Positions 43,560 to 61,178 of a stretch of DNA of 64,000 bases are shown here, piece by piece. Made by a program: the position numbers and the translations under genes. The notes under the pieces are model-generated. The model saw only the letters and a list, made by a program, of their open reading frames with translations. It had not been told where the DNA came from and did not search any database. Source of the DNA: Longimicrobiales bacterium (GTDB taxonomy: Bacteria; Gemmatimonadota; Gemmatimonadetes; Longimicrobiales; Gaopeijiaceae); contig CAXXKM010000003.1 of the NCBI GenBank assembly GCA_963664435.2, positions 1,152,001 through 1,216,000 of the forward strand, written 5' to 3'. Within the stretch, counting starts at the first letter, position 1. Every line of letters starts with the position of its first letter.

Positions 43560-44729
43560 ATGCTACACATCTTGGTCGTTGACGATAATGCCGACTTGGT
43601 TGACGCGATGCGGACGAAGGTTGAGAGCGCTGTTAGAAGTCGGGCCAACGTCACCACCCTCACTGGAGCTGTCCTCAAAAAGGCGATTCGTCAACTCCGG
43701 CGGAGGGAAAGCAATTGGGACGCCAAGGATCGCTGGAGGCCACGGAAATACAACGCCCACTTCGATTCAGCAGACATCCTGGTCCTTGACTACCGGCTTG
43801 CGGATCTCTATGGGCCGGATGGATACATGACCGGAGAGGACCTGGCTGCACTGGCTCGGCGCTATTCGACGGCGGGGCCAATTGTGTCGGTGAATCGGTT
43901 TGGCGAGCAGAGCTTCGACTTGCGGCTCCGTCCCGAAACGCAGACATGGGCGGAGGTAAGCGTTGCGCACGAAGACCTTCGGAACCCACGTCTTTGGTCA
44001 GCTGGCGCGGACGGGCCGTACCGTCCTTGGGGATGGTCTTCGCTTGATCATCTTCCCGAATTGTTCGACCGACGCATGAAGCATGCTCTGAGGCATTTCG
44101 ACAGTTCGGTTGCCAAGTCGCTCGGTATCTCACAGACGCAGTTGGATCTCATGCCGCGGAAGATCAGCGAGTCCCTAGGAGATGATCCGTTCCGCATCAC
44201 ATTCAGGGAAGTCGCGCTGCAGCGGGCGTTTCCGTCCGATAATGTGCCGAAGCCCTCGCGACCACAAATGGCGAGGGTGGCTGCAGCGGAAGTAGGGAAG
44301 TGGTTATCCCATAGCGTGTTGCCCGGGCAGGAAATCCTAATCGACGCGCCGCATCTTGCGACGCAGTACCCGAGCTTGGTGAAGGGTCGACGGACGCAGG
44401 CGCGGCTCAACCAACTAGCCCGGATGACTCCGAGCGCTGATCTCCCCCTGGACACGACGCGTATCAAGGGCGCCCGACTTCGACCTGGCTTCTGGCTTGA
44501 CCGGCCAGCTTGGTGGACGGAGGCCGTACTCGAGAATCGAGAGCTTCCTGAGAACCGAAGGCCGTGGGAAAGAACACCGCTGGCCTACCGATTTGCAGAA
44601 GATACTTCGCAGTTCCATACACCAGCCGAATGTCGGACTTTCCAAGCCGTTGGGATGTTTGGCAAGCGCTACGTATGCGTACCAAATGACACTATCACAT
44701 ATAAGCCCGCCAATCGACTGCTCGGTTAA
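43560..44729 (+). CDS. Receiver-domain protein with unrecognised C-terminal domain
   Basis: HILVVDD...DILVLDYRL...TG receiver pattern; follows the kinase gene. Confidence 0.72.
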   Translation: MLHILVVDDNADLVDAMRTKVESAVRSRANVTTLTGAVLKKAIRQLRRRESNWDAKDRWRPRKYNAHFDSADILVLDYRLADLYGPDGYMTGEDLAALARRYSTAGPIVSVNRFGEQSFDLRLRPETQTWAEVSVAHEDLRNPRLWSAGADGPYRPWGWSSLDHLPELFDRRMKHALRHFDSSVAKSLGISQTQLDLMPRKISESLGDDPFRITFREVALQRAFPSDNVPKPSRPQMARVAAAEVGKWLSHSVLPGQEILIDAPHLATQYPSLVKGRRTQARLNQLARMTPSADLPLDTTRIKGARLRPGFWLDRPAWWTEAVLENRELPENRRPWERTPLAYRFAEDTSQFHTPAECRTFQAVGMFGKRYVCVPNDTITYKPANRLLG

Positions 44730-44731
44730 GA

Positions 44732-45412
44732 GTGCAAACTGTGAATAGCGACTATATGAGACTCCGCGCGGCGCTGTTGGTAATTGCCGCTGTCTCGGAC
44801 CGAGAATGGCGAAGTAAGGAGCAATATCCACTCCGTGGTCCTTTCACGCATTTAGATCGCGAGTTGCTGGAAAAGCAGTTGCCGGAGACCGACCATACGA
44901 TAAAAATTCCGCTTCCGACGATAACTAATCGCTTGTTCCTTCTCCCACCAACTGGCGACTCAGTGTGTGCTCTTCTCGCTGTCAACTGGGAGTTTGCTTC
45001 GGACGACGAGGGATCCGACCGGCTCAAGGAACAGCGGAATCCAGATGACACAAGATATATCAGTCGTGCCTTTAGGGTATTCCTAATGCCGACCGATTCG
45101 GCCACAGACGTAGCACCCACGGTCTTCCGTTTTGATGAGAAAGAGGACGACGACTGGTGCTTCGCCCACGCGCAACTCTGCGACAGAGTGACACCGTATG
45201 GTGGTTATTTTGACGATACGGCTTCAACGGACTGGCTTTCAGCGAGGCTGCCGCGCATTCCATTGGCAGCTACTCAGAGACCGGCGCCAATCTTTGTATG
45301 TTTGCTTGCCAGTCTCTATGGGATCGATAACCGACTCTTGCGCAGGGTCCTACAAGCGCTGGCCGACAGAGAATCGCACGGTGTCGCGCAGAAACTCAGT
45401 TGTGGGAAATGA
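44732..45412 (+). CDS. Hypothetical protein, third gene of the kinase operon
   Basis: FRFD...HAQL...PRIPL pattern, loosely DUF2290-like. Confidence 0.55.
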   Translation: MQTVNSDYMRLRAALLVIAAVSDREWRSKEQYPLRGPFTHLDRELLEKQLPETDHTIKIPLPTITNRLFLLPPTGDSVCALLAVNWEFASDDEGSDRLKEQRNPDDTRYISRAFRVFLMPTDSATDVAPTVFRFDEKEDDDWCFAHAQLCDRVTPYGGYFDDTASTDWLSARLPRIPLAATQRPAPIFVCLLASLYGIDNRLLRRVLQALADRESHGVAQKLSCGK

Positions 45413-45660
45413 CGGCGGCGTCAGCGAACGGAATCTACGCAGCTATCGTACTGCTTCCACAAAGTCGATTCCGTCCGAGGGAAGGACGGCCGTCAACGGG
45501 AACGGCGGGCGGTGCCGGTCGCTGTTGTCCGCGCGGCGACAACGAGAACGCGACAGTGCGCCTCGGATAGACAGGCCAGACAGCCGAAACGAAGAGATGG
45601 ATCTCTCCTGGTGTTTTCCGGCGGGAAAGGGGAACTGTAAGCCTAACGATGGCCGTTATC

Positions 45661-47307
45661 TCACCGGGACGGTCGACGCCACTCAATGAGCTTGGAGCGG
45701 GCGCGTTGGAGCATGTCAATCTCTTGCTTCCCAAGGCCAAGTCCGGCCCGTAGAACCCGTTCGTCTGCAAGTCGCCTGGCTTCCTCTTCCTCACCTCTCC
45801 GAAGCAAGACATCTAGGTCGTGGAACCTATCTTCCGAACCTGCTACTATCGGTACGGGGGTCCGCTTCAGAGTGCCCGGCTCGATCTTCAATACTCCCCC
45901 GCCGTAGCGCCGCCCCGCGAGCTCCGCCCACGCCGCGACCGCGCTCGTGAGAAAGCCGACCGCCACGGCTTCCGGTGTAACTTTCACGTCGTTTCGCCAG
46001 GTGAGGCTGTGGACGGCATTGGTGTTCAGGCATTCTCCCCGGTTGAGGACCAGTAGCGGTGAACCGGCTCGTGCACAGGTGGCGAACGCGTTGGGCGGTG
46101 ACGGGATATCAACACGAAACCACTCCTTTCGGATGGTGCATTTGTGGCGTTCTTCGATACCCATGTCACGGCCTTCCTGAATCCACGGTTCGACGCGGCG
46201 ATCCTCGCTGGCACCTTCTGGGCGCACAAGTAACGCGGCGAATCCGGCATCCAAGAACGTGTCGTGGTCTTCTTCTGTGTACTCCAGGCCCTTCAGCCAT
46301 CTTGTTCGAGGCACGATGCGATGGCGAACACCTTGCGGCAATCCTAAGGCATCCAAGTCGGTGGCGGAGCGGATGAAATGGCGGTTGGCCCCGGTGACTA
46401 CACCGATTCTTATGTCCGCGACGTCACTCAGGCGTCTCACCGCACAACTTTCGTCGAGTCGGCCGAGGACCGAGACGACGGCCGCACCGATCTTGCCAAA
46501 CGCAGTTGGAAAGCGATAGGAGAGTTGGCTTTCGTCGGAATCGGGATGCTCCAGGACCGACTGGAGTTCCTCAACAGAGTCCACCGTCGACGTTAGGACA
46601 TCTCCGCTTTCGCCAAACCCGGAGCACGCCACTGCAACCACTGCCTCGTCCGTCCCCGCAAACATGCGGTCTCGGACGTACACCAGGAGAGTCCTCCTGA
46701 ATCTACTCGCTAGTGCTTGTCTCAGCGGTGCGCCGTAGTTCGTTTGGAGGATGGCTTCCGGGACCAACATGGCAAGCCGACCTCCGAGGGAAAGGAATCT
46801 GAGAGCGTGAAGGAGGAAATACGCCCATAGGCTGGCGGTTGCAGGGAGCGGAATCGTCGAGTCGGCCGCTGCAGCGCGGGCGGACTCCAATTGGTCGCCC
46901 TTGATCCAGTGGTGCCGGACGTACGGTGGGTTACCGACAATGGCCGCGTACGGGGCGCCAGGAAGATCGGTTGGCGACGCCTTCAAGAAGTCGCCTTGGT
47001 AGCAGTTGGCCTCGACCAACCGCTCGCTGCGCCGAACGGTGTCGACGCAATGCGGATCGATCTCGACGCCGTATACTCGCTGCCCTGCCTTCGAAGCATC
47101 CAGCTCCGAGAGGATCCGCACAGCTGCCTCTAGGAAGGCGCAACCCCCATAGCTTGGGTCAAGTACCGGCCCGCGCCCGTCGGCCAAGGCCCATCTCACC
47201 ATCACGGACGCCAAGTCATCGGGAGTGTAGTAGACGCCGAAGAGGCGTCGGGGACTGATGTCGTCCCCGTCCCGGGATTCGCGAGATGAGAGGGGGGCCG
47301 TGCCCAT
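45661..47307 (-). CDS. N6-adenine DNA methyltransferase (gamma class)
   Basis: GVYYTP, VLDPSYGGCAFL, GVEID, IVGNPPY, GRRYGGGVLKIEP. Confidence 0.9.
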   Translation of the reverse strand: MGTAPLSSRESRDGDDISPRRLFGVYYTPDDLASVMVRWALADGRGPVLDPSYGGCAFLEAAVRILSELDASKAGQRVYGVEIDPHCVDTVRRSERLVEANCYQGDFLKASPTDLPGAPYAAIVGNPPYVRHHWIKGDQLESARAAAADSTIPLPATASLWAYFLLHALRFLSLGGRLAMLVPEAILQTNYGAPLRQALASRFRRTLLVYVRDRMFAGTDEAVVAVACSGFGESGDVLTSTVDSVEELQSVLEHPDSDESQLSYRFPTAFGKIGAAVVSVLGRLDESCAVRRLSDVADIRIGVVTGANRHFIRSATDLDALGLPQGVRHRIVPRTRWLKGLEYTEEDHDTFLDAGFAALLVRPEGASEDRRVEPWIQEGRDMGIEERHKCTIRKEWFRVDIPSPPNAFATCARAGSPLLVLNRGECLNTNAVHSLTWRNDVKVTPEAVAVGFLTSAVAAWAELAGRRYGGGVLKIEPGTLKRTPVPIVAGSEDRFHDLDVLLRRGEEEEARRLADERVLRAGLGLGKQEIDMLQRARSKLIEWRRPSR

Positions 47308-47799
47308 GATCCTCCTTCAGGTTGCTGATCCTCTTCGAGCAGAGAAATGTCCTACCCCTGAATCTACACCCCGTTGCAACATGAGGCCTTCGGCTGAGCC
47401 GTCACAGCACCACTGGCAGGCACGGGACGGGCAACCAGATCGTGACCGGCGGGGCGGGACAAGGGCCGATGCAGTCAGTTCTCGGTTACGTCATACCGGA
47501 TGAGCGCCCCGCCGGTGAAGGATACGGCTCCTCCATGCCGTCGCACCGGTACCCCTGTGAAGGGCAGCGTCAACGGTCGCCCATTGCCCTCCGCTGATCC
47601 AGCGGAGTCGGCGGACACTACGATGTGCCTTGGTGTGTCGCATAAGGGCTGTATCGCTGCGTAGTGGGCTCCTCGCCGCCACTTGGGCGGCGTAGGAAAC
47701 CGGGCGGTGCTGCGCGCCAGCGCAGTCCGCGGCTTGTCGGGAGTGACCAGGTGCGGGTCGTGCGAAGAACTCTACTTGGGTATTGAGTCCGAGTGCGCG

Positions 47800-47917
47800 G
47801 GTTCCCGCCATTTGATGGCGATTCTCCCGCAATTCGCGCACGGTAGAAGCCGCTACGGCCCAACGGCAAGAAACGCAGATCGTGCAGTCCTCGTTGAACT
47901 TAAGAGGTCTCATGCCG
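47800..47917 (+). repeat. Dispersed att-arm-like repeat, copy 4
   Basis: TTCCCGCCATTTG...CTCCCGCAATTCG...ACGGCAAGAAACGCAGATCGTGCAGTCCTCGTTGAACTTAAG. Confidence 0.8.
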
Positions 47918-48099
47918 TCATTTGGCGGCTCGGGTCCTCCGCACGGTATTCACCCGACACCCGACACCCGACCTCACCGAGGTCAGGCCTACGCTGCTTT
48001 CTTCACCTCCTTGCTGCCTGAGGACTAGCGTGTGCGCTTCCGGGCAATCCCAGCCTTGAAGACCACGTAGGGCGTCCTCCCCCTTCATGCCGCGGCCCT

Positions 48100-48595
48100 G
48101 TGCCGACGCCGTCGGTTGTAGGTCTCAAGATAGGCATCCAGGTCCTTCTGCATCTCCTCGACGGTCTTGTACCAGGTCGTGCGCTCCTTATAGTCCTCCC
48201 GATCTCTCTGGACAGTAGCTTGGCAACCCTTCCGGGGTCCAGGGGAAAGGGGCACGGGATGTCTCGGAGTACGGAAGAACAGGATTCGGCGAAATACCGC
48301 GGTCGGGTTGGAAGGTCTGCCGAAGCGGTGGAGCGCCCAGCGGAAGGCCGAGGTGGGTAATTGCGACTGCTGCGCGGGGAGGACTATCGGCGAGGGGAGC
48401 CGGGAGATTCGGGTTGGTCCGCCGGAGTTGGAGCGGCGGCGGCGGGAATTCCTGGAAAGCGGTCAGCCGGGTCTCAAGAAGAAGAACCGGCCGGGAGGCG
48501 AGCTGATGCGGACCCGGGCGAAGCTGGGAGAGATGACGATGCGGGTCGAGTTGCAGGTGGAGCTTCTCTCCCGTGATTCGCGCCTCAGGTGGCCC
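48100..48595 (+). pseudogene. IS transposase OrfA remnant (IS3-like)
   Basis: PKRWSAQRKAEV...REFLESG...RAKLGEMTMRVEL, frameshifted and truncated. Confidence 0.6.
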
Positions 48596-48597
48596 AC

Positions 48598-49992
48598 CTA
48601 GTCGCTGGGTGCATCTAGAATGAGACCGTCCCAATCTTCGACTTGGCCCTCGTGGATTACACGCAGGATTGCCCTCCGGCAGAGCTGCTGGGCGTCCGCG
48701 AGCAGAGAGCGGTCGTTGTGTTTCGACTTTCCTCCGTGGACAAGGCGGGAGGCGGCAGCGTATGCGCCGCGCAGGATCCTCCAAGCCTCGCGCCGGTCAG
48801 CAGCGTTCTCGCCGAGAAGCCAAGCCCCCCGAGCTGCAAGGGTGTAGCTCAACTGCTGATTCGTCCCTTCGGACAACAGCAGCGCTTCGAGTGCGATGCG
48901 GAGGTCAATCAACTGATCGGTGATTTCGGCGTAGGGGGTCAGCGATTTCTTCCAACGCGCCGCAGCAAGTCGCGTTCGGGCATCTGTATGGTCTAGCGCC
49001 GCGAGAAGCCTGCCAATCCTCGTTTTCGAGGGAGCGGGCGCCGCGCCATCGACAGGTTGGAGTGTTTTCACACCCGTCTCAAGGCTGAGGCTCCATCCGG
49101 AAGCTGGATCGATCGAGCGACTAGGTGTCCCCCAGGTCGTCCCGTTGTCCGCTATTGCCGACACGCCTCCGTAATCGTTCCACCCAAAACTCAGAGGGAT
49201 GTCGGCGTTGCACTCTAACGCCAGGGCCAAGCCGATGGTGTCGAAGCCGCCACATCGCGGAGCCAGCGCAGCGGTGACAACGCCGTTGAGGTCGTCGACA
49301 TTCGGGCGGAACAGGGCAGGCTCCGCCGTGGTCGCGACCTGAACGACAGACCGTCCCAAGTAGGTTTCAGCCTGGATGCCGCCCGAGGGAAGCCGCTTGG
49401 AAAGCGAGTCCGAAGACAGCGGCAGCGGGACGATGTCGATCCCGTCAATCGGAGTCATGGCTTGAGCGAGCCTGAGCGCCGCGACCCGGCAGGTGCGATA
49501 CTTCATGGGATCGCCACGGATCCAACCCGCGATGAGGTCGGTAACTCGGTCGACGCCAAGAATCGCCGCATCCTTGATCAAGGCTTCACCGAATTGCTCG
49601 ATCGACGAAACTGAAGCTTGGACGTGGAGACCGTTCGGTAACAACACGGACGCGCTTCTGCCATTTCCAGCTATCGGAAGAGCGTGTCCGACGCAGTCCG
49701 AAGCCGGATCGACGTAGCCTGACAGTGCCTCGCGCACACTACCCATCAGGTTGGTTCGGAGCGTCTCTGGCATGGAGACGCGGGCGTTTCTGATCATGGT
49801 CAGTGCTTGGCCGTGCCACGTTGCTCGTTCGTAGGCTCCACGCAGATTCTCGGCATCAATGCTCTCATCGGGACCGTGGCCGTAGCTCGTGCTGTGGAGC
49901 CCGTGGTGCTTGATCATGCGGCCCATGTCAAACGACGTCGCCGCCAACGCCCGACGCAAAGAAGTCCTGAGGTCTTGGACTGCGTTGGTCAT
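48598..49992 (-). CDS. HEPN domain protein (ApeA-like C-terminus)
   Basis: DLRIALEALL...YTLAARGAWLLG...AYAAASRLVHGG. Confidence 0.72.
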   Translation of the reverse strand: MTNAVQDLRTSLRRALAATSFDMGRMIKHHGLHSTSYGHGPDESIDAENLRGAYERATWHGQALTMIRNARVSMPETLRTNLMGSVREALSGYVDPASDCVGHALPIAGNGRSASVLLPNGLHVQASVSSIEQFGEALIKDAAILGVDRVTDLIAGWIRGDPMKYRTCRVAALRLAQAMTPIDGIDIVPLPLSSDSLSKRLPSGGIQAETYLGRSVVQVATTAEPALFRPNVDDLNGVVTAALAPRCGGFDTIGLALALECNADIPLSFGWNDYGGVSAIADNGTTWGTPSRSIDPASGWSLSLETGVKTLQPVDGAAPAPSKTRIGRLLAALDHTDARTRLAAARWKKSLTPYAEITDQLIDLRIALEALLLSEGTNQQLSYTLAARGAWLLGENAADRREAWRILRGAYAAASRLVHGGKSKHNDRSLLADAQQLCRRAILRVIHEGQVEDWDGLILDAPSD

Positions 49993-50318
49993 ATGGGTCG
50001 TGGGCTAGGAGTCGGCGCTTGGAAAGCCGCGATCATCTTGCGAGGCCCCCCAGGAGGCCATGAAGGGGCCGGCCGTAGGCTGCACTCGCCCTTCGTGAGC
50101 CCTTGGTCACACATCGAAACAGGAATCGTGCTCCACGAGCCTTTGACGCCTTTCGTACCCCTCGGCTGGCGTAACGTCTTACGAAACTCCGCCGGACGAC
50201 GCACTCCAACTCTGCATGAATTGGGTGATGTCTCATGAAGATCGTGAACCTCTCCGCCGCGTTCTCGCCGTCCTTGTAAGCCTTACCGTCCGATCCAGCA
50301 GTCCGTCCCCCTCCGGTC

Positions 50319-50465
50319 CCGCTAAACTCCCGCTATTCGACCCGGTTTTCACGCTTTTCGAGCACGACAGGCCCGATCACAGTCTCACGGCAAGAACGGC
50401 AGATCGCGCAGTCCTGGTTAGACTTAGACGATTTCTTGCCGGGATTCGCATCCCCTCTCAGGGGA
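50319..50465 (+). repeat. Terminal arm of the ICE (repeat copy 5), abutting the right att site
   Basis: Same repeat family, directly followed by the 43-bp att core. Confidence 0.85.
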
Positions 50466-50508
50466 TTGTAAGGCAGGCGCTCTGAACCAACTGAGCTAAG
50501 CGCCCCGC
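50466..50508 (+). repeat. att site, right copy (displaced 5' half of tRNA-Val)
   Basis: Identical to 301-343. Confidence 0.92.
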
Positions 50509-50514
50509 TTGAAC

Positions 50515-51363
50515 TTAACGGAACCCTGCCCTAACCCCCCCGGACTCCCTCCACGCATCATACCGCATGCGCAGGGTTCGGACCGGGTTGGCATCCTCGT
50601 GAGGCAGGGTGTTCGTCGGGATGGCGGAGATGTAGAGGTGGTATTCCCCGTCGTTGTAGGGCGCGCGCAGATCCTCGGGATGGTTGTCGGCGAATTCGCC
50701 CAGGGTGTTCTCCGGGTCCGCGGCAAGGATGTAGGCGACGTGCGAGGTCTTGCCGTCGCAGTCGGCGTACGCCTCCGGCAGAGGCTCGGTCTCGCAGGTG
50801 CAGCGGCTGTCCCCGCCCAGTTCGTCGGCCCTCTCCATGGCGCGCATGACGCGGTCGATGACGTCGTCGCTGCCTTCCTGCATGATGCGCGCGGACTCGG
50901 TGAGCGCCTCGGTGGTCGCGATGATGTTGCCCTGCACCGAGTACAGGATGTCGTCCGGGCTGCGCCCCTGAATATCCAGCGACACGGGGCGGTTGCCCTC
51001 GCCGGAGCGTCCGGCGGTGCGGCCCTGCATGTCGATGATGCCGAACTGCCGGCGCTCGATGTCGGGATCCTCCTCCAGCATGCGGATGATATCGACGGGA
51101 TCGGTGCCGTTCTGCAATTCGGCGAAGATGAGCTTCTGGTTCTCGTGGGTGCGGTCCACGCCCGCCTGGGCGGCCGCCACGCCCACGCCGGGCACGACCA
51201 CCGCCTGCAGCAGCTTGAGCTGGTCGGGGCCGGTCGCGGCGCAGGTGGCTGAGGCGATCACGACGCGCCCGGTGGCGAGGTCGATGGCAATGATCGACCA
51301 GGTGGCCAGTGCGGTGGAGGGAACCAGAAGGATGAATGCGAGAGCAACGAGCAGGCGTCTCAT
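50515..51363 (-). CDS. DUF1028 family (Ntn-hydrolase-like) secreted protein
   Basis: Signal peptide then TWSIIAID...GVAAAQA...RQFGIID...SVQGNI...GGDSRC. Confidence 0.85.
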   Translation of the reverse strand: MRRLLVALAFILLVPSTALATWSIIAIDLATGRVVIASATCAATGPDQLKLLQAVVVPGVGVAAAQAGVDRTHENQKLIFAELQNGTDPVDIIRMLEEDPDIERRQFGIIDMQGRTAGRSGEGNRPVSLDIQGRSPDDILYSVQGNIIATTEALTESARIMQEGSDDVIDRVMRAMERADELGGDSRCTCETEPLPEAYADCDGKTSHVAYILAADPENTLGEFADNHPEDLRAPYNDGEYHLYISAIPTNTLPHEDANPVRTLRMRYDAWRESGGVRAGFR

Positions 51364-51481
51364 GGGACCCTCCGCGGAGCATTCTGTGTGAAGATGCCGC
51401 TCGCGTCCCGCGACGGGATGCAGGCGAGCAGGTGCGGCCGGAGCTCGAGCCTCCGGCCCCGTGCGTGCATGAGGCCGAAGG

Positions 51482-52105
51482 TTACGAACCGCTGCGCGCG
51501 GGCCGCATGCTTCGAACCGAGATCGTCGTCTCGTGCAGACACGGCGAACTCTCGGTCAGGGTGCCCTGGACGACCACCTCGGTCCCCATCTCCCAGTCGC
51601 CCTCCTCGCCTTCCAGCGCGTACACGTCCCCGAACTCGCCGAACAGCACCGAGCAGGGCTCGCCCACGTGAATGAGCTGCCCCCGGCGGGTCAGGATGCC
51701 GTTTTCGTCGGTGGCGTGGAAGTAGTTGGAGAGGGCGAGCGGCCGGAAGTAGAAGTCGAAGACGATGAACACCGTGGGACGGTCGAGGTGCGCCCACTCG
51801 GGAACCATGACGCTCATGTCGATCCGGCCCCGCTCGGTGGTCAGCTCCTGGCCGATCTCCTCGAACCCGAACTGGGCGGCTCCGAGCCCGATGCGGGTCG
51901 GGGTGATGGCGGGCAGCCCCCCGGTGTTGATGCTGACGCGGGTCCCCGCGGGCCCCGTGCGCGGACGGATCGACTCGATGCGGCGCGAGGGCGCATGGCC
52001 TTCGACCACTTCAGCCTGCGCCGCGGCCTGGCGCGCATCGGCGAGCCCCAGGACGAGCAACGGGATCGACAACGCCACGCGTGCCGTCAGGCGGACGCGG
52101 GCCAT
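51482..52105 (-). CDS. Hypothetical secreted protein
   Basis: Signal-peptide-like start; SIRPRTGPAGTRVSI is IPT/TIG-like. Start uncertain (up to 52165). Confidence 0.6.
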   Translation of the reverse strand: MARVRLTARVALSIPLLVLGLADARQAAAQAEVVEGHAPSRRIESIRPRTGPAGTRVSINTGGLPAITPTRIGLGAAQFGFEEIGQELTTERGRIDMSVMVPEWAHLDRPTVFIVFDFYFRPLALSNYFHATDENGILTRRGQLIHVGEPCSVLFGEFGDVYALEGEEGDWEMGTEVVVQGTLTESSPCLHETTISVRSMRPARSGS

Positions 52106-52363
52106 GGGGGACGGATTCGGAATCTGGTACATGATCATCCTCCTCGCCGAAGGCTTCGGCGGCACGAGGTCAACTTGCTACATCGTACGCCGGAGGAGGG
52201 GGTTGGTCCAGTGGAGGCGGGGGGCGAGCCCGCCCGGGATGGCGGTTGAGTCGATTGAGTGGGAGAAACAGCCAGACGAAGTTTGCGCTGGCGGTTACCC
52301 GCAGGCCCCGTCGCCATCGTATCTTGTGTTGCCGGATCGGCTCGCGATCCTGTGCCGTTGGTC

Positions 52364-52474
52364 GTTGCCGGGGTCCAAGGACCTCGGCCTTTGTTGAGCG
52401 AGTTTCGGGCCTCTTGGGGCATCCACAGGTTGGGTCTGGTCGCCGGGGCTTTGGCCCCGGCCTTCGTTTGAACG
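52364..52474 (+). CRISPR. Mini-array: two degenerate repeats and one spacer (candidate Cas-regulating RNA)
   Basis: Repeat 1 GTTGCCGGGGTCCAAGGACCTCGGCCTTTGTTGAGCG (52364-52400); spacer ~52401-52436; repeat 2 GTCGCCGGGGCTTTGGCCCCGGCCTTCGTTTGAACG (52439-52474). Confidence 0.82.
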
Positions 52475-52611
52475 CGTGAGCAGCCCGCAGCTCTCATTCC
52501 GCGTTGTGCCAACTTGCTCCTGACGGCCTCCACGATACGTCAAACCTGGTGAGATCGGCCTCTTCCCGTTGATCTCCGGAGGTGTTATCGTTGAGGTGTA
52601 GATAAGAAGTA

Positions 52612-52640
52612 TTGCGCCAAGTGGCGCTAAACTGTATGCT
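52612..52640 (+). promoter_or_regulatory. Predicted sigma70 promoter of the cas operon
   Basis: TTGCGC (52612-52617), 17-bp spacer, TATGCT (52635-52640), about 45 bp upstream of csb1. Confidence 0.65.
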
Positions 52641-52683
52641 AATCAGTGTGAAAAGAAACCACCCCCAACCAAGGAGGGAGGCC

Positions 52684-53880
52684 GTGGCCCGCACGATCAG
52701 CCTTGACACACTGCTCGCCGGATGCGCGGACGAGTCGCTCGATGACGGGATTCGCATCGACACGGAGTTGGAACCCCTCTCCGGTCCAGGTGGGCGCGTG
52801 AAACCCGCCGTGTACGAGGGCGGACGATACCAAGAGGACAACCGGTGGGCCTTGCCGTCCGACGACGAACCAACGCCAGTGATCGTCATCGACAACGTCC
52901 CCTCGCAGGCAAACCGCCTCGAGGAGGCACTCCGCCGAAGCCGCTCCTCCGTACCTGTCCCGGAGCTGATCCTCGACCTCACTGACATCGAGAGCCTGCC
53001 CGCGCACCTGCCCCGGCGAATCTCGAGCTTGCACTTCCCGCACCGGAACGCGGACGCCTACCTCCGGGATGCCCGGTTGAACGACGAGAACTTCGCGACG
53101 TCCAAGCTCGGAAAGGCCATTCTGGGAGCCACACCCGCGAAGTGCGGCGCGTTGATGTCCTGGTTTCCGCAATCCCTGCTCTACGGTTTCTGGCAGTCGC
53201 ACCTGGGGAAGAAGCGACACGGTACCAAGCACGCCCGCGCCTGGGTCTCGGAGATCGTCGGTTGGCAGCCGGCGGCCAACGAGACGAAGACTCTTGGGCT
53301 GAAAGGGGATCCCTTGAACCTCAACACGGACGAATCGCTGACATCCAATCCGAACGATCTCCTGCACTGGGGAATCGGCATTGCGGAGGTGGAGGGAGGA
53401 AAGAAGGACAAGCTCTCCGAGATCGGACACGGTCAAGTTCCCTTCATGGGGGAGGAAGCCGCAGCCGCAGCCGTTTCGTTCGCCCGTGTCACCCAACGGG
53501 CGACCGTCTCCTTCGCCCAACTCAGGCGCGTCGGCTTGGGCGACAGCCACGCCCCCGACGCCGATGCGGCCGCGCGTGCCGTGCTGGTCGCTCTCGGCCT
53601 GCACGCGCATGTGCTCGCCTTTGGACGCGGCTTCGCGCTCAGATCGGGTGCCGAACTGCGGCCAGCCCAGACCGTGACGACATGGCTGGGAGGCGATGAG
53701 GACGTAGCCTGTGATCTCGGCGGTGCCAAACACACCCAGCAGCTTCTGGAGGAGGCGATCAAGCGGGCAGAAGCCCTCGGCGTTCCTCTTGACGGTTGGG
53801 GCAAGGAGCCCCTCCGGCTCACTCCGAAGAACAACCTTCGGCAGGCGATTCTCGCCACTTGGCCGGAGGTGGCGGACTGA
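52684..53880 (+). CDS. csb1: Type I-G Cas7 (Csb1)
   Basis: VKPAVY, IDNVPSQANRLEEAL, FPHRNADA, LLYGFWQS, SEIGHGQVP, LRSGAEL; AGGAGG RBS, GTG start. Confidence 0.92.
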   Translation: MARTISLDTLLAGCADESLDDGIRIDTELEPLSGPGGRVKPAVYEGGRYQEDNRWALPSDDEPTPVIVIDNVPSQANRLEEALRRSRSSVPVPELILDLTDIESLPAHLPRRISSLHFPHRNADAYLRDARLNDENFATSKLGKAILGATPAKCGALMSWFPQSLLYGFWQSHLGKKRHGTKHARAWVSEIVGWQPAANETKTLGLKGDPLNLNTDESLTSNPNDLLHWGIGIAEVEGGKKDKLSEIGHGQVPFMGEEAAAAAVSFARVTQRATVSFAQLRRVGLGDSHAPDADAAARAVLVALGLHAHVLAFGRGFALRSGAELRPAQTVTTWLGGDEDVACDLGGAKHTQQLLEEAIKRAEALGVPLDGWGKEPLRLTPKNNLRQAILATWPEVAD

Positions 53881-55334
53881 TGCTCGCGATCTCAGTCGAG
53901 TTCCTGCATGGGACGTTTCGCGGCGACCCGCGAGGCACCGCCGGTACGGGAGGTCTCCTCCGAGGCGAATGGCCTCCCGCTCCGGCGAGACTGTTTGCCG
54001 CCATGGTGGCCTCGGACGGGACGCGAGATCGCTGTCGCGTGACGAACGGTACGGAACTGGGGTGGCTTGAGCAGCTTCCGGCACCGGTGATCCGCGCCCA
54101 TGGTTCTGCCTGGCACCAGCCGCTCCGGCCGCGTTACGTCGTCCGGGCCGAGAGGGGATACGCGCGCCGTAAGAGGCGAGGCGAGAAACAGAAGACCAGT
54201 GCCCACTTGGAATACATTGGGCGTGCGGGCGCTGAGGTTCGACCGGGCGTCCGGGTCACGCCCCGCGACCCCCGCGTCGTCTATCTTTGGGATGCCGTTC
54301 CCGCGCCAGAGATCGTGAGCGCGCTGCGGCGGCGCGCGGCCCGCATCGGGTATCTCGGCACAGCCGACTCGCCGGTGCGTATCCGCGTGCAAACGACAAT
54401 ACCGGAGTCGGCGATGCCTGCAGATGTCTTCGTGCCCGACCCACAGGGCGACGTAGAGATCTGCGTGCCCCAGAAAGGCGATGTTGGTCGATGGGACCGG
54501 ATGTACGACGACTGGATGGAACGAGGCCCCAGCGTGAGCCGAGCCCAGTTTCCGGCTCTTCGGCACGAGGCTCGATACCGATCACCCAACGCCGGCACGG
54601 CACATGTCGACAGAGGCGGGGTCGTCGCGTGGCTACGTCTCGAAACCGCAGTGTCCGGGCGCCGCGTCTCCACGGTGACCGCCCTCTTCAAGAAGGCCGT
54701 GCTCAAGGCGCACCAGGAACTGTACGGCGAACCCCCCCCGATCCTTCACGGCCACGGGTTTGAAGGTCGGGGTTACGAGCTCGCCCGCTTCCTCGCCCTT
54801 CCAGACGTCGGACGCCGCTGGTCGCGGGGGCGCATCCACGGCTTGGCCCTCTGGGTTCCGCCCGGATGTGATCGGGCGACCAGGTCACGCGTGCGGGACG
54901 CCGCGAACTCGCTACGGCGACTCTGGGGAGGCGGCGTGAACGTCAATGTTCAACCGCACGTCGGCGAAAAGCGACCGGTCGCCGTAGCGCCGGGACGCTG
55001 GACGGGTCGCGAGGGTCGACACTGGGTAACTGCCTTCCCGGCCGTGCACGAACGGAGGGTGCCGCTAGACCTCGATGAGGTGTCCAGATGGTGTATCCAC
55101 GCCGGGCTCCCTCGACCGGTGGCGTTTCGCTCGTCGCGATCCCCTCTGGTCTCCGGCGGCGTCGATCTCGCTCCGGTGGAGGTAAACCGGCGCGGCAGAC
55201 CGGGGCGTCCGTATTCACATCTCGAATTATGGCTGGCCGAGCCAGTGAGAGGTCCGGTGGTGATCGGGGCGGCCCGCCAGCGCGGGCTAGGGCTTTGTAC
55301 GGACGTTCCCCACGGAGAGGTGTCCCATGGCTGA
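53880..55334 (+). CDS. csb2: Type I-G Cas5/Cas6 fusion (Csb2)
   Basis: EWPPAPARLFAAMVA, YLGTADS, GPVVIGAARQRGLGLC. Confidence 0.92.
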   Translation: MLAISVEFLHGTFRGDPRGTAGTGGLLRGEWPPAPARLFAAMVASDGTRDRCRVTNGTELGWLEQLPAPVIRAHGSAWHQPLRPRYVVRAERGYARRKRRGEKQKTSAHLEYIGRAGAEVRPGVRVTPRDPRVVYLWDAVPAPEIVSALRRRAARIGYLGTADSPVRIRVQTTIPESAMPADVFVPDPQGDVEICVPQKGDVGRWDRMYDDWMERGPSVSRAQFPALRHEARYRSPNAGTAHVDRGGVVAWLRLETAVSGRRVSTVTALFKKAVLKAHQELYGEPPPILHGHGFEGRGYELARFLALPDVGRRWSRGRIHGLALWVPPGCDRATRSRVRDAANSLRRLWGGGVNVNVQPHVGEKRPVAVAPGRWTGREGRHWVTAFPAVHERRVPLDLDEVSRWCIHAGLPRPVAFRSSRSPLVSGGVDLAPVEVNRRGRPGRPYSHLELWLAEPVRGPVVIGAARQRGLGLCTDVPHGEVSHG

Positions 55335-58176
55335 TGCGGTTCGACCGCCGCGGGTCCCGACCTTTCAGAAGTTTTACCAAGCGCTCCATGGACGCCTGCC
55401 CTTTCCTTGGCAAGCGCGGCTCGCGAAACATGTGGGGGAGCAGGAATCGTGGCCGAGGGAAGTGGGCGTGCCCACCGGACTGGGCAAGACGTCTTGCCTC
55501 GATATCGCGATCTGGTGGTTGGCGTCGCAAGCTGACCGTTGTCCCCACCGGCGTACGGCACCCACGCGGATCTGGTGGCTCGTCAACCGGCGGATTCTCG
55601 TGGACTCGACCTACGATCATGCCGTGAAGATCAGGGATGCGCTCCAAGATCCGGCGGGGCTTGGAGTCGAGGGTGCCGCAGCCAAGGTGTTGGGCGCGGT
55701 GGCCGACAGACTTCGTTCGCTGTCATCCGATCACCGAGCTGACCCGCTCGAAGTCATCCGACTCAGGGGAGGGGTGACATCGGAGCGTCCAACCGATCCG
55801 TCAAGCCCTGCGGTTGTGCTCTCCACGATCCCCATGTACGGATCTCGCCTGCTCTTCAGGGGCTACGGCTCGGGACGGTTGATGCGCCCGGTGGACGCGG
55901 CTCTGGCCGGCACGGACAGCCTCCTCCTCATTGACGAGGCGCACTTGGCGCGGCATCTGAGGAGCCTGCTTCCCAGCCTCGCCGACTCTGCTTCGTGTAC
56001 CAGTTCGATCCTCAACACCGCCCGTTCACAACCACAGGTAGTGGCGCTGACCGCCACGGGAGACGCAGTCGGCGAAGAACGCTTCGACCTGGACGAGGAG
56101 GACGAGCGGCATCCGATCGTGCGCAAGCGACTCGACGCCCGCAAGCCACTGGAGATCCGAGAAGAATCCGGTGGTGCTGGACTGCGCTTGGCGGAGGCCG
56201 CCACTCGGCTCCTGCGCACGGAACCCCATGCGACGGCGTCATGCCTCGTATTCGCGAACACGCCGGACACCGCGAGAGCTGTGTTCGATCGCCTCCGGAC
56301 TACTTTCTCCAACGCGAAAGCGGACATCGTCCTACTGACCGGCCGCATGCGTGAGCGAGAGGCGCGGGACATTCGAGAGCGGATCCTGGACTCCTCGAAT
56401 GGGATGGCTGCGACCCGCGAACGCACGGTCGCACGCGCGAAGCACTTCATCGTTGTCGCTACCCAGACGCTCGAGGTCGGTGCCGACATCGACGGGGAAT
56501 ACATGGTTACGGAGGCCTGCGGGGTTCGGGCCCTGACCCAGCGGCTGGGCCGACTGAACCGGCTCGGTTGCTTCTCCAACGCCCGCGGGATCTACGTCCA
56601 TCTTCCTGCCCCGCGCCGCAAGGGTCGGAGGGCCAAGGATGGCCCACGGTGGCCAGTGTACGGCCGGGAGCCCGAGACGGTGCTCGAACGACTCAAGAAC
56701 GCCGCCGACGGTCAAGGCGTTTCTGTCGGGCCGCGAGACGTGGCGCGAGTGCTCGGAGATCCGGGTGACGACCCGGGCCGCGCTCCTGAGATTGTGCCTG
56801 GTTTGTTGTGGGAATGGGTCAAGACGACGACCCCTCCGAAGGACGAGGCACCGGTTGAGCCGTACTTCTCCGGCATCTCCGGGCCGGACTATCGGGTATC
56901 GCTCATCTGGCGAGCGCATCTGCCCGAGGAGGAAGAGCGGCTGTGGCCTCGAGCAAGTGACCGCGAAGCGGTCGAGATCCCGCTTTCCGAGGTGCGCGAG
57001 GTGCTTGGTCGTGGTGGCAAGGAGACCCAAGTCAAGCGGCTGGCCTTCGACGGACTCACGATCGAGGACATCGACTTGGCACAGGTCCGTCCAGGGGACA
57101 CCCTCGTGTTTCCGTCTGACCAAGGCCAGTACGATGAGTTCGGGTGGAACCCGCGCTCCACCTCCGCCGTCGTCGACATGTCCCTGATCAGTCACGGCCT
57201 GCCGCTGGACGCCCAAGCGATTGGACGGTTGCTGGCTCCCCGCGCTCAACGGGCGCTGCCAAGGGAGTTTCGCGAACTGATCAAGATGGCTCTCGGCGAG
57301 GTCGAGGATCACGACGAGATCGATAAGGGGGAACAGCGAGAGGCCGTAACGCGGCTTCGCGACGTGCTCTTGGAGCAGGATGCCCCGGAGGGATGGACCA
57401 GCTCGGAGTGGGATGAGGCCATTCGAGACTTGGAACTCGAAGTCGTCCAGACACCGAAGGAGGTGCCTCGTCTTCCGAAGGCCCAAACCACCTCGGCCCA
57501 GGCACGGAGCGACGAACTGGACGAACGATCTCTCGGCCCGTCCGCCACGGAGTTGGACCCGCATGGCCGAGCCGTCGCGGCGCGAGCGGAGTCCATTGGT
57601 ACCCGCCTCGGAGTCGAGCCTGAACTGAACGATGTCGTCAGCCGGGCGGGCCGCTGGCACGATATCGGGAAGGCGGACCCGCGGTTCCAGCGGTGGCTAA
57701 AGGCCGATCCGGGCTTTCGGCCGAGCGCCGACGGAGACCGGCTCTTGGCGAAGTCGGGCACACCCCCGCACCTCTGGGAAGCTATGCGGAGATCATCGGG
57801 CTGGCCGGCGAAGGGTCGCCACGAGAACTTGTCGGCACGGCTCGCGAGGCGTTGGATCGCGTCCCGGAACGAATTGGAGCCCTCGCTGGCGGACCTTCTT
57901 CTCCACCTGATCATTTCCCACCACGGTCACGGGCGGCCACTCGTGCGACCCGCAGTGGACGGGACGGAGGAAACCTTGCGGGGGATAATCGCTGGCACGC
58001 AGTTCGAGGTTTCGGCCAATCTGGCGGTGATCGATTGGGACCAGCCGGCTCGTTTTCGGCGGCTCAACAACAGCTTCGGCCCTTGGGGTCTGGCCTTACT
58101 TGAAACCATTCTGCGGCAAGCCGACCACTCGGTGTCGGCTGGTGCCCGAGTAGCTGAACTCGAGGTCTCATCGTGA
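55327..58176 (+). CDS. cas3: Type I-G Cas3 (helicase with C-terminal HD nuclease)
   Basis: PFPWQ, PTGLGKT, IDEAH, TQTLEVGADID, QRLGRLNR; C-terminal HDIGK, RHE, HHGHGRP. Confidence 0.95.
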   Translation: MADAVRPPRVPTFQKFYQALHGRLPFPWQARLAKHVGEQESWPREVGVPTGLGKTSCLDIAIWWLASQADRCPHRRTAPTRIWWLVNRRILVDSTYDHAVKIRDALQDPAGLGVEGAAAKVLGAVADRLRSLSSDHRADPLEVIRLRGGVTSERPTDPSSPAVVLSTIPMYGSRLLFRGYGSGRLMRPVDAALAGTDSLLLIDEAHLARHLRSLLPSLADSASCTSSILNTARSQPQVVALTATGDAVGEERFDLDEEDERHPIVRKRLDARKPLEIREESGGAGLRLAEAATRLLRTEPHATASCLVFANTPDTARAVFDRLRTTFSNAKADIVLLTGRMREREARDIRERILDSSNGMAATRERTVARAKHFIVVATQTLEVGADIDGEYMVTEACGVRALTQRLGRLNRLGCFSNARGIYVHLPAPRRKGRRAKDGPRWPVYGREPETVLERLKNAADGQGVSVGPRDVARVLGDPGDDPGRAPEIVPGLLWEWVKTTTPPKDEAPVEPYFSGISGPDYRVSLIWRAHLPEEEERLWPRASDREAVEIPLSEVREVLGRGGKETQVKRLAFDGLTIEDIDLAQVRPGDTLVFPSDQGQYDEFGWNPRSTSAVVDMSLISHGLPLDAQAIGRLLAPRAQRALPREFRELIKMALGEVEDHDEIDKGEQREAVTRLRDVLLEQDAPEGWTSSEWDEAIRDLELEVVQTPKEVPRLPKAQTTSAQARSDELDERSLGPSATELDPHGRAVAARAESIGTRLGVEPELNDVVSRAGRWHDIGKADPRFQRWLKADPGFRPSADGDRLLAKSGTPPHLWEAMRRSSGWPAKGRHENLSARLARRWIASRNELEPSLADLLLHLIISHHGHGRPLVRPAVDGTEETLRGIIAGTQFEVSANLAVIDWDQPARFRRLNNSFGPWGLALLETILRQADHSVSAGARVAELEVSS

Positions 58177-59060
58177 GCTCTAAGGTCTGTCCGGGGCTGC
58201 CTGCATCCTGGATCAACGCCTGGCTGGCGGCCGTGGGAGCAACGGTTCTCAATTCGCGTCTCCGGCTGAATTGGACTGAGGACGGTACGCCGCAGGCAGT
58301 CCTTTCGGCCACGGAGGAGGATCCGTTGGACCTCTTGGCTGAGTCCTGGCCCCGTCGTGACGCCGTTGAACTCATGCCGATCGCCAGAAAGTGGCCAAAC
58401 ACGGAGAATATGGGCAGGAAAGTTGGCGTTTCCGCATTCGCCTCCCGAGTGGCCGCCACTCGTCGTGACCCACACGCCTGGACCCTTTCGTCGACCATGA
58501 CCGACCTTGACGTGGACAGGCATGGCCAGGTCGCCCACGCACCATTCGATCCTCCTGTGCCTCAAGGCCGGGTTCTCCACGAACGCCTGCTCGGGATCTT
58601 TCTCAGACCATCTGCCGAGCTTCTCGCGCGAACGTTCGATGGGATGGGCGAGAGAATTGGCAATAACGGACTGGGGTTCGACTTGTCCCGGATCGGCTCG
58701 CAATCGGACAGCGGCGAGAAATGGATCGACCCTGTCGTGGAGACATTGGCCTTCTTCGGGCTCGCCCTTTTCCCATTCCGAGGCCGAGGCACCGACGCCT
58801 CTGAAGGCGGGCAGACACGCTCGTCCGCAGTTCAAAGAGGCTGGAGGCGGTCGCAGACGGAGCAAGGACTTCGCTTCGAGTGGCCCGCTTGGAACACCCC
58901 TCTGGACTGCGCAGGAATCGACGCTCTTCTCGACCTGTGGCAACCCCACAAGAAGAAGACGTGGCAACAGTTGGGAGTTCATGATGCGTGGCGGACCGTG
59001 AGGTACGCGGCCAAGGGAACAGCCGACCCCACACGCGGCTTCGGAGCGATACGGCTGTGA
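58173..59060 (+). CDS. csb3: Type I-G Cas8-type subunit (Csb3-like)
   Basis: NAWLAAVG, PVVETLAFFGLALFP, FEWPAW..PL; located after cas3. Confidence 0.7.
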   Translation: MSSKVCPGLPASWINAWLAAVGATVLNSRLRLNWTEDGTPQAVLSATEEDPLDLLAESWPRRDAVELMPIARKWPNTENMGRKVGVSAFASRVAATRRDPHAWTLSSTMTDLDVDRHGQVAHAPFDPPVPQGRVLHERLLGIFLRPSAELLARTFDGMGERIGNNGLGFDLSRIGSQSDSGEKWIDPVVETLAFFGLALFPFRGRGTDASEGGQTRSSAVQRGWRRSQTEQGLRFEWPAWNTPLDCAGIDALLDLWQPHKKKTWQQLGVHDAWRTVRYAAKGTADPTRGFGAIRL

Positions 59061-59674
59061 AGCACGAATTCGTGGTCAGGATTTCGGCGATCGAGCACTT
59101 CGCCTACTGTCCGCGTCAGTGCGCCCTGATCCACTGTGACGGAGTGTGGACCGACAACGTGCATACCGTGCGAGGGTCGCGCGCGCACCGGCGGGTGGAC
59201 GCAGGACAATCCCGTTCCGAACGGGGCAAGCTCGTACTCAGGGCAATTCCCCTCTGGTCCGAGGCGCTGGGGCTGTCCGGCAGGGCCGACGTGATCGAGA
59301 TCGATGGCGAGGTTGTCCGACCCATCGAGTACAAGTCTGGCACGCGGCACGGATCAGCGGCGAATCTACAACTCTGTGCCCAAGCAATGTGCCTGGAGGA
59401 AATGCTCGGCGTCGATGTGCCGGAGGGATATGTCTGGTACGGCGGACCCAGACGGCGAGTTCGGGTCCCCTTGACCAAAGAACTACGGCGAGAAGTCCGA
59501 GAAGTGATTCGGCGAATTCGGCAACAACTGTCCACGGGTGACCTGCCTCCTGCGCCGAACGACGCCCGTTGTACGGAGTGCCAGCTCAGATCCCACTGCC
59601 TCCCCGAGTTGACGAGCGCGCCACTCAGAGTAGACCGCTACATGACCGGTAGAGTGTTCGAGTGCGCTACCTGA
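59057..59674 (+). CDS. cas4: Cas4
   Basis: ISAIEHFAYCPRQ, GRADVIE, PIEYK, QLCAQAMCLEE, C-terminal CxxCxxxxxC. Confidence 0.93.
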   Translation: MKHEFVVRISAIEHFAYCPRQCALIHCDGVWTDNVHTVRGSRAHRRVDAGQSRSERGKLVLRAIPLWSEALGLSGRADVIEIDGEVVRPIEYKSGTRHGSAANLQLCAQAMCLEEMLGVDVPEGYVWYGGPRRRVRVPLTKELRREVREVIRRIRQQLSTGDLPPAPNDARCTECQLRSHCLPELTSAPLRVDRYMTGRVFECAT

Positions 59675-60678
59675 ATACCCTCTACGTCCGGAATCATCGC
59701 GCTCGCGTAAAACACCGGCGCGGCTCGCTGCTCGTCGCGACTCCAGGCGATGTCCAGCGTGTTCCGCTTGAGGCGATCGATGCCCTGGTGATGCTCGGCA
59801 ACGGACAGATCACGTCGCAAGCTCTCGATGCTTGCGTAAAGCACGGCGTGCGCGTTGCGGCCTTGCGCAAGGGAGGTTCGGTGCGGTTCGTGGTTGGCCC
59901 CCAGACAGGCGGCAACGTGCACCTACGTATGGCGTTGTATCGTGCTGTAGCGGACCCGAGTCATTCCCTCGCGCTCTCCAAAGCGGTCGTCGCGGCGAAG
60001 CTGCAGAACAGTAGGAAAGTGATGGGTCGTTGGTCCCGTGATGCAGCGGACCCCCAAGTTGCCGATAATCTCGCCTCCCGCGCAGCACAGATTCGGGCGC
60101 GTGTGCCCCGTCTCGGCGAAGCTGATTCGCCAGACCGGGTTCGCGGGATCGAGGGGGATGGCGCAAGAATCTACTTTCGGGGATTACGCGAGGCGGTGTC
60201 GCGCACCGAGCTCAGATTCTCGTCGCGTTCGAAGCGGCCGCCGCGGGATCCTGTGAATGCGGCGCTCAGCTTCTGCTACGGTCTTCTCGTCACTGAGTAC
60301 ATCGGGGCCACCGAGAGCGTTGGACTGGACTACCAGATGGGGTTCTTCCACCGTCCTCGTTCGGGTCGACCATCGCTGGCGCTCGACCTTTCCGAGGAGC
60401 TTCGGCCCCTCGCGGATCGATTTGTCGTGTCGCTCATTCGCCGACGGCAACTCCAAACGACCGACTTCGCCGAGACGCCGGGAGGCGCCGTCTACTTCAG
60501 CGAGAACGGCCGGGTACGCCTCCTGGAGGCTTGGGAACAGCACAAGGGAAGGGAAATCCGCCATCGCATCCTGCGCCGCCGCGTCGGACGATGGGCGCTT
60601 CCTTCCTTGCAGGCGACCCTCCTTGCACGGCACTTGCGCGGTGACCTGCCAGCGTATCCTCCCTTCGTCATCCCCTGA
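59662..60678 (+). CDS. cas1: Cas1
   Basis: LNTLYV, RGIEG, RPPRDPVNAALSFCY, GFFH, SLALDLSEELR. Confidence 0.95.
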   Translation: MRYLNTLYVRNHRARVKHRRGSLLVATPGDVQRVPLEAIDALVMLGNGQITSQALDACVKHGVRVAALRKGGSVRFVVGPQTGGNVHLRMALYRAVADPSHSLALSKAVVAAKLQNSRKVMGRWSRDAADPQVADNLASRAAQIRARVPRLGEADSPDRVRGIEGDGARIYFRGLREAVSRTELRFSSRSKRPPRDPVNAALSFCYGLLVTEYIGATESVGLDYQMGFFHRPRSGRPSLALDLSEELRPLADRFVVSLIRRRQLQTTDFAETPGGAVYFSENGRVRLLEAWEQHKGREIRHRILRRRVGRWALPSLQATLLARHLRGDLPAYPPFVIP

Positions 60679-60681
60679 CTC

Positions 60682-60972
60682 GTGGACATCCTCGTTACCT
60701 ACGACATTGCGGACACTCGCGGTGAGGGGGGGCGGCGACTGAAACGCATCGCCCAAGTTTGCGAGAAGTATGGCGAGCGGGTCCAACTCTCGGTCTTCGA
60801 ATGCCGGTTGTCACCTTCGCGGTTAGCTCGAATGATCGGAGAGATTGAGGACATCATGGACCGCCACCTCGATTCGCTCATCGTCTATCGATTCCCGGGC
60901 CGACTGGATGAGTCCCGGCTTCGCTTCGGGCGGTCCCAGCCTCACGAACTAGGGCAACCTTGGGTGATCTGA
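60682..60972 (+). CDS. cas2: Cas2
   Basis: LVTYDI, CEKYGERVQLSVFEC, DSLIVY. Confidence 0.95.
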   Translation: MDILVTYDIADTRGEGGRRLKRIAQVCEKYGERVQLSVFECRLSPSRLARMIGEIEDIMDRHLDSLIVYRFPGRLDESRLRFGRSQPHELGQPWVI

Positions 60973-61178
60973 GCCCGGTTGCGAACCTCCAGTGATTCAG
61001 TCAGGATCGGCGACGGATACCAGAATAGAGCCCAATAGCTGCGAGATGCAGGACCTATCCCGCCGTCGATGGCTTCGTCCCTCCGCAGCTCACGCCGATT
61101 TCTTCGGTGTCTCTTTGCGTCCCAGGGTCTTGATCACGCACTCTCTTCCGTTCAGGACTATTCCGCACAAGGTTAGGG
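60973..61178 (+). promoter_or_regulatory. CRISPR leader
   Basis: Non-coding stretch between cas2 and the first repeat; the degenerate repeat lies at the opposite end. Confidence 0.7.

Follow-up and report, generated by a model that had tools for sequence, protein, structure and literature searches.

The type I-G CRISPR-cas operon found in the window, by which we mean the whole 64,000-nt stretch of Longimicrobiales DNA under analysis, is preceded by a cryptic mini-array of two degenerate repeats (psi-repeats) enclosing a single psi-spacer, and this psi-spacer partly matches a site located between the mini-array and csb1, the first gene of the operon. The element is probably a CreR-type autorepressor, that is, a source of a crRNA-like guide that would turn the I-G effector against its own cas operon. 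Such Cascade autoregulation had already been put forward in the initial annotation, made from the letters alone, and comparative evidence supports a reading in which a guide RNA would lead the I-G effector to the promoter of its own operon, since TAC-flanked partial matches recur in two other lineages, none of 602 control spacers behaves alike, and TAC is a working PAM of the type I-G system of Bifidobacterium.

The operon contains the signature set of type I-G, with TIGR02570, TIGR02165 and TIGR02621 each scoring above its own cut-off. The start codon of csb1 is GTG, directly preceded by AAGGAGGGAGG, and the positions given for csb2 in the feature table are those of the listed ORF, whose real start codon may be further downstream. 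No ORF of the operon matched the family of the large subunit Cas8g/Csx17, which makes the operon a variant in gene content. The sole unassigned gene is the 295-aa ORF that follows cas3, which stays just under the cut-off of the Cas3-extension family and found no match in a Pfam search. With regard to the main array, whose spacers measure 34-38 nt, the degenerate last repeat and the leader on the cas2 side agree and fit transcription on the plus strand, so that the 8-nt 5' handle of its crRNAs would be the 3' end of the repeat (GTTGAGCG). An 8-nt 5' handle derived from the 3' end of the repeat has been measured for the type I-G system of Thioalkalivibrio (10.1101/2022.08.08.503147).

Features of the type I-G locus and its upstream mini-array (positions within the window)
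Feature	Positions	Strand	Basis or remarks
psi-repeat 1	52362-52400	+	R1 32.4 bits, E 1e-7
psi-spacer, 36 nt	52401-52436	+	bases 1-21, guide part; bases 22-36, unrelated to target
psi-repeat 2	52437-52474	+	R1 33.1 bits, E 6e-8
predicted csb1 promoter (TTGCGC, 17 nt, TATGCT)	52612-52640	+	putative; read from the sequence
target (protospacer-like)	52613-52633	-	psi-spacer bases 1-21 match 17/21
candidate PAM, reads TAC, 5' of protospacer	52634-52636	-	alignment
csb1 (cas7g), first gene of the operon	52684-53880	+	PF09617 E 3.7e-34; TIGR02570
csb2 (Cas5-Cas6 fusion, repeat-cutting nuclease)	53796-55334	+	TIGR02165 E 1.6e-54; PF09609
cas3g helicase-nuclease	55327-58176	+	TIGR02621 E 5.6e-187
295-aa gene, weak likeness to I-G 'Cas3-extension family'	58173-59060	+	NF049934 57.7 bits, cut-off 65
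cas4	58988-59674	+	adaptation gene
cas1	59662-60678	+	adaptation gene
cas2	60682-60972	+	adaptation gene
leader of main array, 206 nt	60973-61178	+	between cas2 and array
main CRISPR array	61179-63613	+	33 identical 37-nt repeats plus degenerate terminal repeat (63577-63613); 33 spacers

Two degenerate repeats upstream of csb1 had been described in the initial annotation, and both were recovered, at the E-values listed in the feature table, by a covariance model (R1) built from the alignment of 25 distinct array repeats of this I-G repeat family, which were drawn from the arrays of 4 genomic and 69 metagenomic loci with Csb1 relatives. The alignment displays a stem of 8 bp with covarying pairs, as well as a tail, CCTTCGTTGAGCG, that is conserved. 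When R1 was run unfiltered over both strands of window positions 1-61150, the third-best full-length match reached only 12.5 bits (E 0.17), and the sole further significant row (19 bits) corresponds to the hairpin of psi-repeat 2 itself, seen on the reverse strand. The two psi-repeats have decayed in complementary ways, again as first described and now borne out by alignment and folding. The last 8 nt of psi-repeat 1 (GTTGAGCG) are identical to those of the array repeat (8/8 in the alignment), and its stem is maintained by changed pairs, with the closing C-G replaced by U-A and the G-U wobble shifted, the hairpin being present in the minimum-energy fold. Psi-repeat 2 keeps a perfect 8-bp stem, but its tail (TTTGAACG) has decayed and contains one extra T, so that anything lying 3' of the mini-array lacks a proper 5' handle. 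As judged from these features, the tail of psi-repeat 1 would supply the 5' handle of a guide RNA, and the stem-loop of psi-repeat 2 its 3' handle together with a Csb2 site.

The mini-array is 8.7 kb away from the main array, and its flanks, on both sides, bear no resemblance to the main-array leader, either in the window or in the related locus L049. No family was matched in an Rfam gathering search of positions 44000-64000. The DNA of the mini-array region is real: positions 52100-52900 show zero differences across four publicly deposited DNA runs, which come from three studies, and for the same reason no covariation within the species can be read there. A contig that co-occurs with this genome in runs X1, X4 and X5 holds a 21-nt stretch one base off the end of psi-repeat 1 (52379-52399), followed by a different spacer-like sequence, where the contig ends. 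A csb1 relative in divergent orientation is about 440 nt away. The stretch is absent from genome G000 and from the collected loci; it would belong either to a related mini-array or, as the opening repeat, to an array located upstream in the co-occurring organism.

Regarding the rest of the genome, a second csb1 is found on another contig (G000 C2:510917-512065, 33% identical; locus L012), with no R1 match nearby, and further arrays at C2:476892-477429 and C2:498675-500569 carry repeats that differ from those of the window; from these sequences, cross-talk with the other CRISPR loci of the genome appears unlikely. Within the window, a tRNA-Val gene (266-340, minus strand) and a second, partial copy of its end (50466-50522, 57 nt, 89% identical) are 50 kb apart, a pair that suggests an integrated element ending about 2 kb before the mini-array. 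The putative island holds an Eco57I-like DNA methylase (45661-47307, minus strand) and a scattered family of direct repeats (D4-D7; 60-130 nt, 65-83% identical) at 33230-33370, 38193-38332, 41163-41220, 47795-47925 and 50316-50455.

With its 36 nt, the psi-spacer falls inside the length range of the array spacers. Its first 21 bases align to the minus strand of a site that precedes the start of csb1 by 50 nt, with mismatches at positions 6, 8, 12 and 18, and the similarity ends there, positions 22-36 giving 2/15 matches, which is the level of chance. The alignment thus confirmed what had been claimed for the spacer, including the 17/21 score, the four mismatched positions, the end of pairing after base 21 and the TAC on the 5' flank. 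Guide position 8, mismatched here, is within the seed of type I-E systems and counts against the autoregulatory reading. The other three mismatches occupy positions 6, 12 and 18, whose bases are flipped out by Cas7 subunits in the I-G structure (PMC9638904), and the probability of three out of four mismatches falling on these positions is 0.003. When every-sixth bases were left out of the scoring and 18 positions were counted, the target reached 17/18 and the next best site of the window 13/18; throughout the 4.5-Mb genome, on both strands, the runner-up sites (13 of them) stayed at 14/18, making the match to the target unique. The sixth-base mismatches, the unrelated distal 15 nt and the complementary decay of the two repeats all speak against chance and against a decaying self-spacer.

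The target overlaps the predicted csb1 promoter. It sits in the lowest-GC part of the intergenic region (45-47%, versus about 65-70% around it), and the predicted promoter boxes agree with the Escherichia coli consensus at 7/12 positions. A sigma-70 scan of positions 52100-52800 returned no promoter-like site at the scan threshold. The -35 and -10 boxes of the earlier proposal, which the scan did not call, are thus taken as predicted only, with a target that does lie in the GC trough and close to csb1.

Similar elements were found in other members of the clade. A search with R1 of 83 csb1 loci, eight of which are cut or have less than 300 nt upstream and one of which is a duplicate (L115, of L004), gave nine in which two repeats form a mini-array no more than 1.3 kb upstream of csb1: the window, L047, L049, L050, L051, L039, L040, L025 and L062. 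Since L049/L050 and L039/L040 are near-identical pairs, the nine loci stand for five lineages. The psi-spacers of different lineages are unrelated in sequence, and three of the five lineages (the window, L049/L050/L051 and L062) have a psi-spacer match flanked by TAC that reaches 13-14 of 15 paired positions. For the comparison across loci, the first 18 nt of each psi-spacer were scored at their 15 paired positions against the best match near csb1, and the TAC-flanked best matches amounted to 13/15 for L049/L050, 14/15 for L051 and 14/15 for L062. Among 602 ordinary array spacers, each compared with the kilobase upstream of its own csb1, the maximum with TAC was 11/15 (3/602) and none scored 12/15 or higher. 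Pooling these matches with that of the window, 8 of 13 mismatches are at sixth positions (permutation P 1.5e-5), and 8 of 11 when L049 is left out (P 5e-6). Moreover, the asymmetry of the psi-repeats is repeated, with tails preserved at 8/8 positions in psi-repeat 1 and 6/8 in psi-repeat 2 of L049/L051, and the same asymmetry in L062.

Spacer/promoter covariation, proposed at the outset as a check, could be followed in part. Guide position 10 is G in L049 and A in L051, and the targets of the two loci show the corresponding difference; for the window, no orthologous case exists. Its same-genus and same-family loci (L112-L119, Csb1 66-73% identical) have no mini-array within 1.5 kb on either side, a ninth locus of that set (L006) being uninformative because its contig ends just upstream of csb1. 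The metagenomic loci L013-L028 and L079 (64-74% identity) have none either, except for the mini-array of L025 and a reversed array in L020, and the upstream regions of 25 relatives could not be aligned with that of the window. With mini-arrays missing from the nearest relatives and upstream regions that do not align, the element is lineage-specific, and hence the window itself offers no orthologous covariation. Four loci without a mini-array (L013, L019, L117 and L002) carry GC-rich palindromes within 120 nt upstream of csb1, which, from their sequence, may be operator sites for a protein.

The remaining lineages show other states of the element. All that is left of the target in L047 is a short seed, and no target above background was found for the mini-arrays of L039/L040 and L025 or for the single psi-repeat of L003, a repeat-like element placed 111 nt before csb1. 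The mini-array of L025 is on the reverse strand, about 1.1 kb upstream; reverse-oriented arrays are also present upstream of csb1 in L020 (three repeats) and at the contig end of L003. The geometry varies as well: besides the arrangement in the window, the target of L049/L051 is about 280 nt upstream of the mini-array, and the mini-array of L062 is divergent, with a target that precedes a 74-codon ORF equipped with a ribosome-binding site. This ORF has no NCBIfam match, and its sequence is unconvincing. A block of about 230 nt (L049 715-945, present in L051 and L047 too) separates target and mini-array, and it is better conserved than the target region and has no evident conserved start codon. 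In a census of 235 I-G loci, 46% had a repeat-like sequence and 4% a mini-array (PMC10120712, Table 1). The 9/83 counted here, in a clade sample that is not representative, is above that 4%; the lineage-specific occurrence of the element agrees with the low census figure.

The PAM can be approached from these targets. The TAC flank is common to those of the window, L049/L050, L051 and L062, and it offers an initial estimate of the PAM in this uncultured I-G clade. In plasmid interference by the I-G system of Bifidobacterium, TAC and TAT flanks gave a drop in transformation of more than 2 log (PMC9335239). The suggestion of deriving the PAM from protospacers of the main array, on the other hand, bore no fruit. 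Searched against 401 genomes of the order, the main array returned only other arrays, short GC-rich chance matches and one self match; against phage and plasmid collections it had no match, and no informative protospacer emerged when 618 spacers from all arrays were compared with all the loci and with the genome. The self match links the main-array spacer at 62160-62193 with its own chromosome at 34/34 positions (G000 C2:517105-517138), inside a long minus-strand ORF, and the matched site is conserved at 86-94% identity in further genomes of the genus and family. The site has CCG at the PAM position and TAC two bases further out, and the two bases in between (CG) are those with which the repeat ends, suggestive of an acquisition slip of 2 nt. 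As the site reads, its flank would not be a PAM, which would explain why the self match is tolerated.

Under the autoregulation model, the mini-array would be transcribed on the plus strand and cleaved by Csb2 at the base of both psi-repeat hairpins, yielding an RNA in which the normal 8-nt 5' handle (GUUGAGCG) is followed by the 36-nt guide and then by the psi-repeat 2 hairpin; this RNA would be loaded into the I-G effector as an ordinary crRNA. The effector would then read TAC, and guide bases 1-21 would pair with the plus strand of the target, bases 6, 12 and 18 being flipped out by Cas7 so that pairing would be dispensable there. The bound complex would impede RNA polymerase and lower the expression of csb1-csb2-cas3, and because pairing ends at base 21 of 36, the R-loop would remain partial and the chromosome would be spared by Cas3. 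A fall in free effector, due to competing crRNAs or to a block by anti-CRISPRs, would in turn raise the output of the operon.

A particular feature of type I-G bears on this model. In Thioalkalivibrio, Cas3 is a stable subunit of the effector and is required for a stable R-loop (10.1101/2022.08.08.503147), and the Cascade of the Bifidobacterium system without Cas3 gave no repression of GFP in a cell-free test (PMC9335239). With Cas3 built into the effector, binding without cutting needs an explanation of its own. The pairing extends over about 18-21 nt in each of the three lineages whose target is recognisable. More tentatively, these guides might reveal a general rule, whereby a nuclease-carrying I-G complex could sit on the chromosome without cutting it as long as pairing does not exceed about 18-21 nt, the sixth-base mismatches being left to drift. 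The loop would then sense effector availability, in response to anti-CRISPRs or crRNA load, and would have arisen repeatedly in the clade with different wiring; with the target placed before the mini-array, as in L049/L051, the guide may also repress its own synthesis. We consider this wider proposal possible, albeit doubtful.

A different origin for the element would be a vestigial array remnant, in which a spacer once acquired from the promoter region of its own operon is decaying and has no regulatory role. Several observations fit such a history, including the reverse-oriented arrays upstream of csb1 in relatives (L020 and the contig end of L003), the missing mini-array in the nearest relatives, the self-derived spacer that the main array does hold (62160-62193, 34/34), and the co-occurring contig with a terminal repeat that is one base off psi-repeat 1 over its last 21 nt. 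Neutral decay, however, predicts evenly spread mismatches, whereas bases 1-21 are near-intact, three of the four mismatches are at sixth positions and bases 22-36 match at chance level. Moreover, the asymmetry of a kept handle and a kept hairpin recurs in other lineages, and so does the TAC-flanked partial match, seen in none of the 602 control spacers. For these reasons, a mere remnant looks improbable to us. 

A safeguard of the CreTA kind is a still less probable interpretation. It holds that a CreA-type guide mainly represses a small toxin gene by the target, so that loss of Cascade kills the cell, and that regulation of cas is secondary. Its appeal comes from Haloarcula, where the CreA target is between the divergent promoters of toxin and cas8 (10.1101/2023.03.10.532045), from the L062 target, directly before the 74-codon ORF with its ribosome-binding site, and from the conserved block of about 230 nt between target and mini-array of L049/L051. 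In the window, the target lies only about 50 nt before csb1, so that no gene fits downstream; the search for a conserved small ORF or a known family was negative, with no NCBIfam match for the L062 ORF, and the Rfam search of 44000-64000 was empty, although a minus-strand toxin RNA may still lie in 52475-52612. As for control by a protein, the target includes the palindrome GCGCCA-AG-TGGCGC, a 6+6 inverted repeat that could be the operator of a transcription factor controlling cas, with the similarity to the spacer being secondary or irrelevant, and other GC-rich palindromes precede csb1 in L013, L019, L117 and L002. This proposal leaves unexplained a unique 17/18 match to the sequence placed exactly between two CRISPR-like repeats, as well as the TAC flank and the sixth-base pattern of mismatches, and no regulator gene was identified adjoining the operon. 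We regard it as very improbable as a full account, even though a protein operator and control by a guide RNA could coexist.

The CreR-type autorepressor, our preferred reading, belongs to a family of regulators with precedents. CreR has been demonstrated in types I-B, I-E and V-A (10.1101/2023.03.10.532045) and a mini-array guide in type I-F1 (PMC10120712). The novelty initially attributed to the element, as being known mainly from other subtypes, was overrated: CreR-type or creA-like elements have been reported in I-U (now I-G) loci by manual search (10.1101/2023.03.10.532045, Figure S7), and the census mentioned above includes mini-arrays in 4% of 235 I-G loci (PMC10120712). Our literature search found no experiment on such regulators in type I-G. 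RNA-guided self-repression of cas is demonstrated for I-B, I-E, I-F1, II-A and V-A, and for I-G there are predictions and the census only. In this context, the window and the two other lineages provide a clean and testable I-G case, with a defined guide, a defined target and a TAC flank. Added interest comes from the built-in Cas3 of the I-G effector and from the recurrence of that flank. With Cas3 in the resting complex, a working example would reveal how much pairing is tolerated before cutting, a tolerance that bears on the use of I-G systems for gene silencing versus deletion.

As in the CreR systems described so far (10.1101/2023.03.10.532045), the window has a degenerate two-repeat mini-CRISPR inside the cas locus, a psi-spacer whose PAM-proximal part is partly complementary to a site next to a PAM, at the promoter of an effector gene (with a candidate PAM and promoter in the present case), and no toxin gene alongside. 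The asymmetry reported there for CreA and CreR, with the 5'-handle bases kept in psi-repeat 1 and part of the 3' handle in psi-repeat 2, is also the one observed here. The sequence features of CreR, namely two psi-repeats, the handle/hairpin asymmetry and a PAM-proximal partial match, are therefore present, whereas no toxin of the kind that defines CreTA was recognised, there being no room before csb1 and no small ORF with a family match. Differences exist in the pairing, since the Salmonella example of CreR uses 15 consecutive nt and the present guide 21 nt broken at 6, 8, 12 and 18 (10.1101/2023.03.10.532045), and in the subtype, which in this case is I-G, with Cas3 as a stable subunit of the effector (10.1101/2022.08.08.503147). 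The mini-arrays of Shmakov et al. likewise contain a spacer partly complementary to the cas promoter region, with sixth bases discounted, but their experiment was done in type I-F1, and the text as available to us describes no single I-G case (PMC10120712). CreTA shares the use of a crRNA-like RNA whose short seed match brings Cascade, for repression, to a promoter inside a CRISPR-cas locus (10.1101/2023.03.10.532045; PMC10120712), and it differs from the window in that no recognisable toxin gene is found at the target, csb1 being the gene that would be repressed. A more distant parallel is tracr-L of Streptococcus pyogenes Cas9, where the effector likewise serves to repress the operon that encodes it, by means of an 11 bp match that avoids cleavage, in that case by a single protein of class 2 and with a derivative of the tracrRNA as guide instead of a mini-array (PMC10120712).
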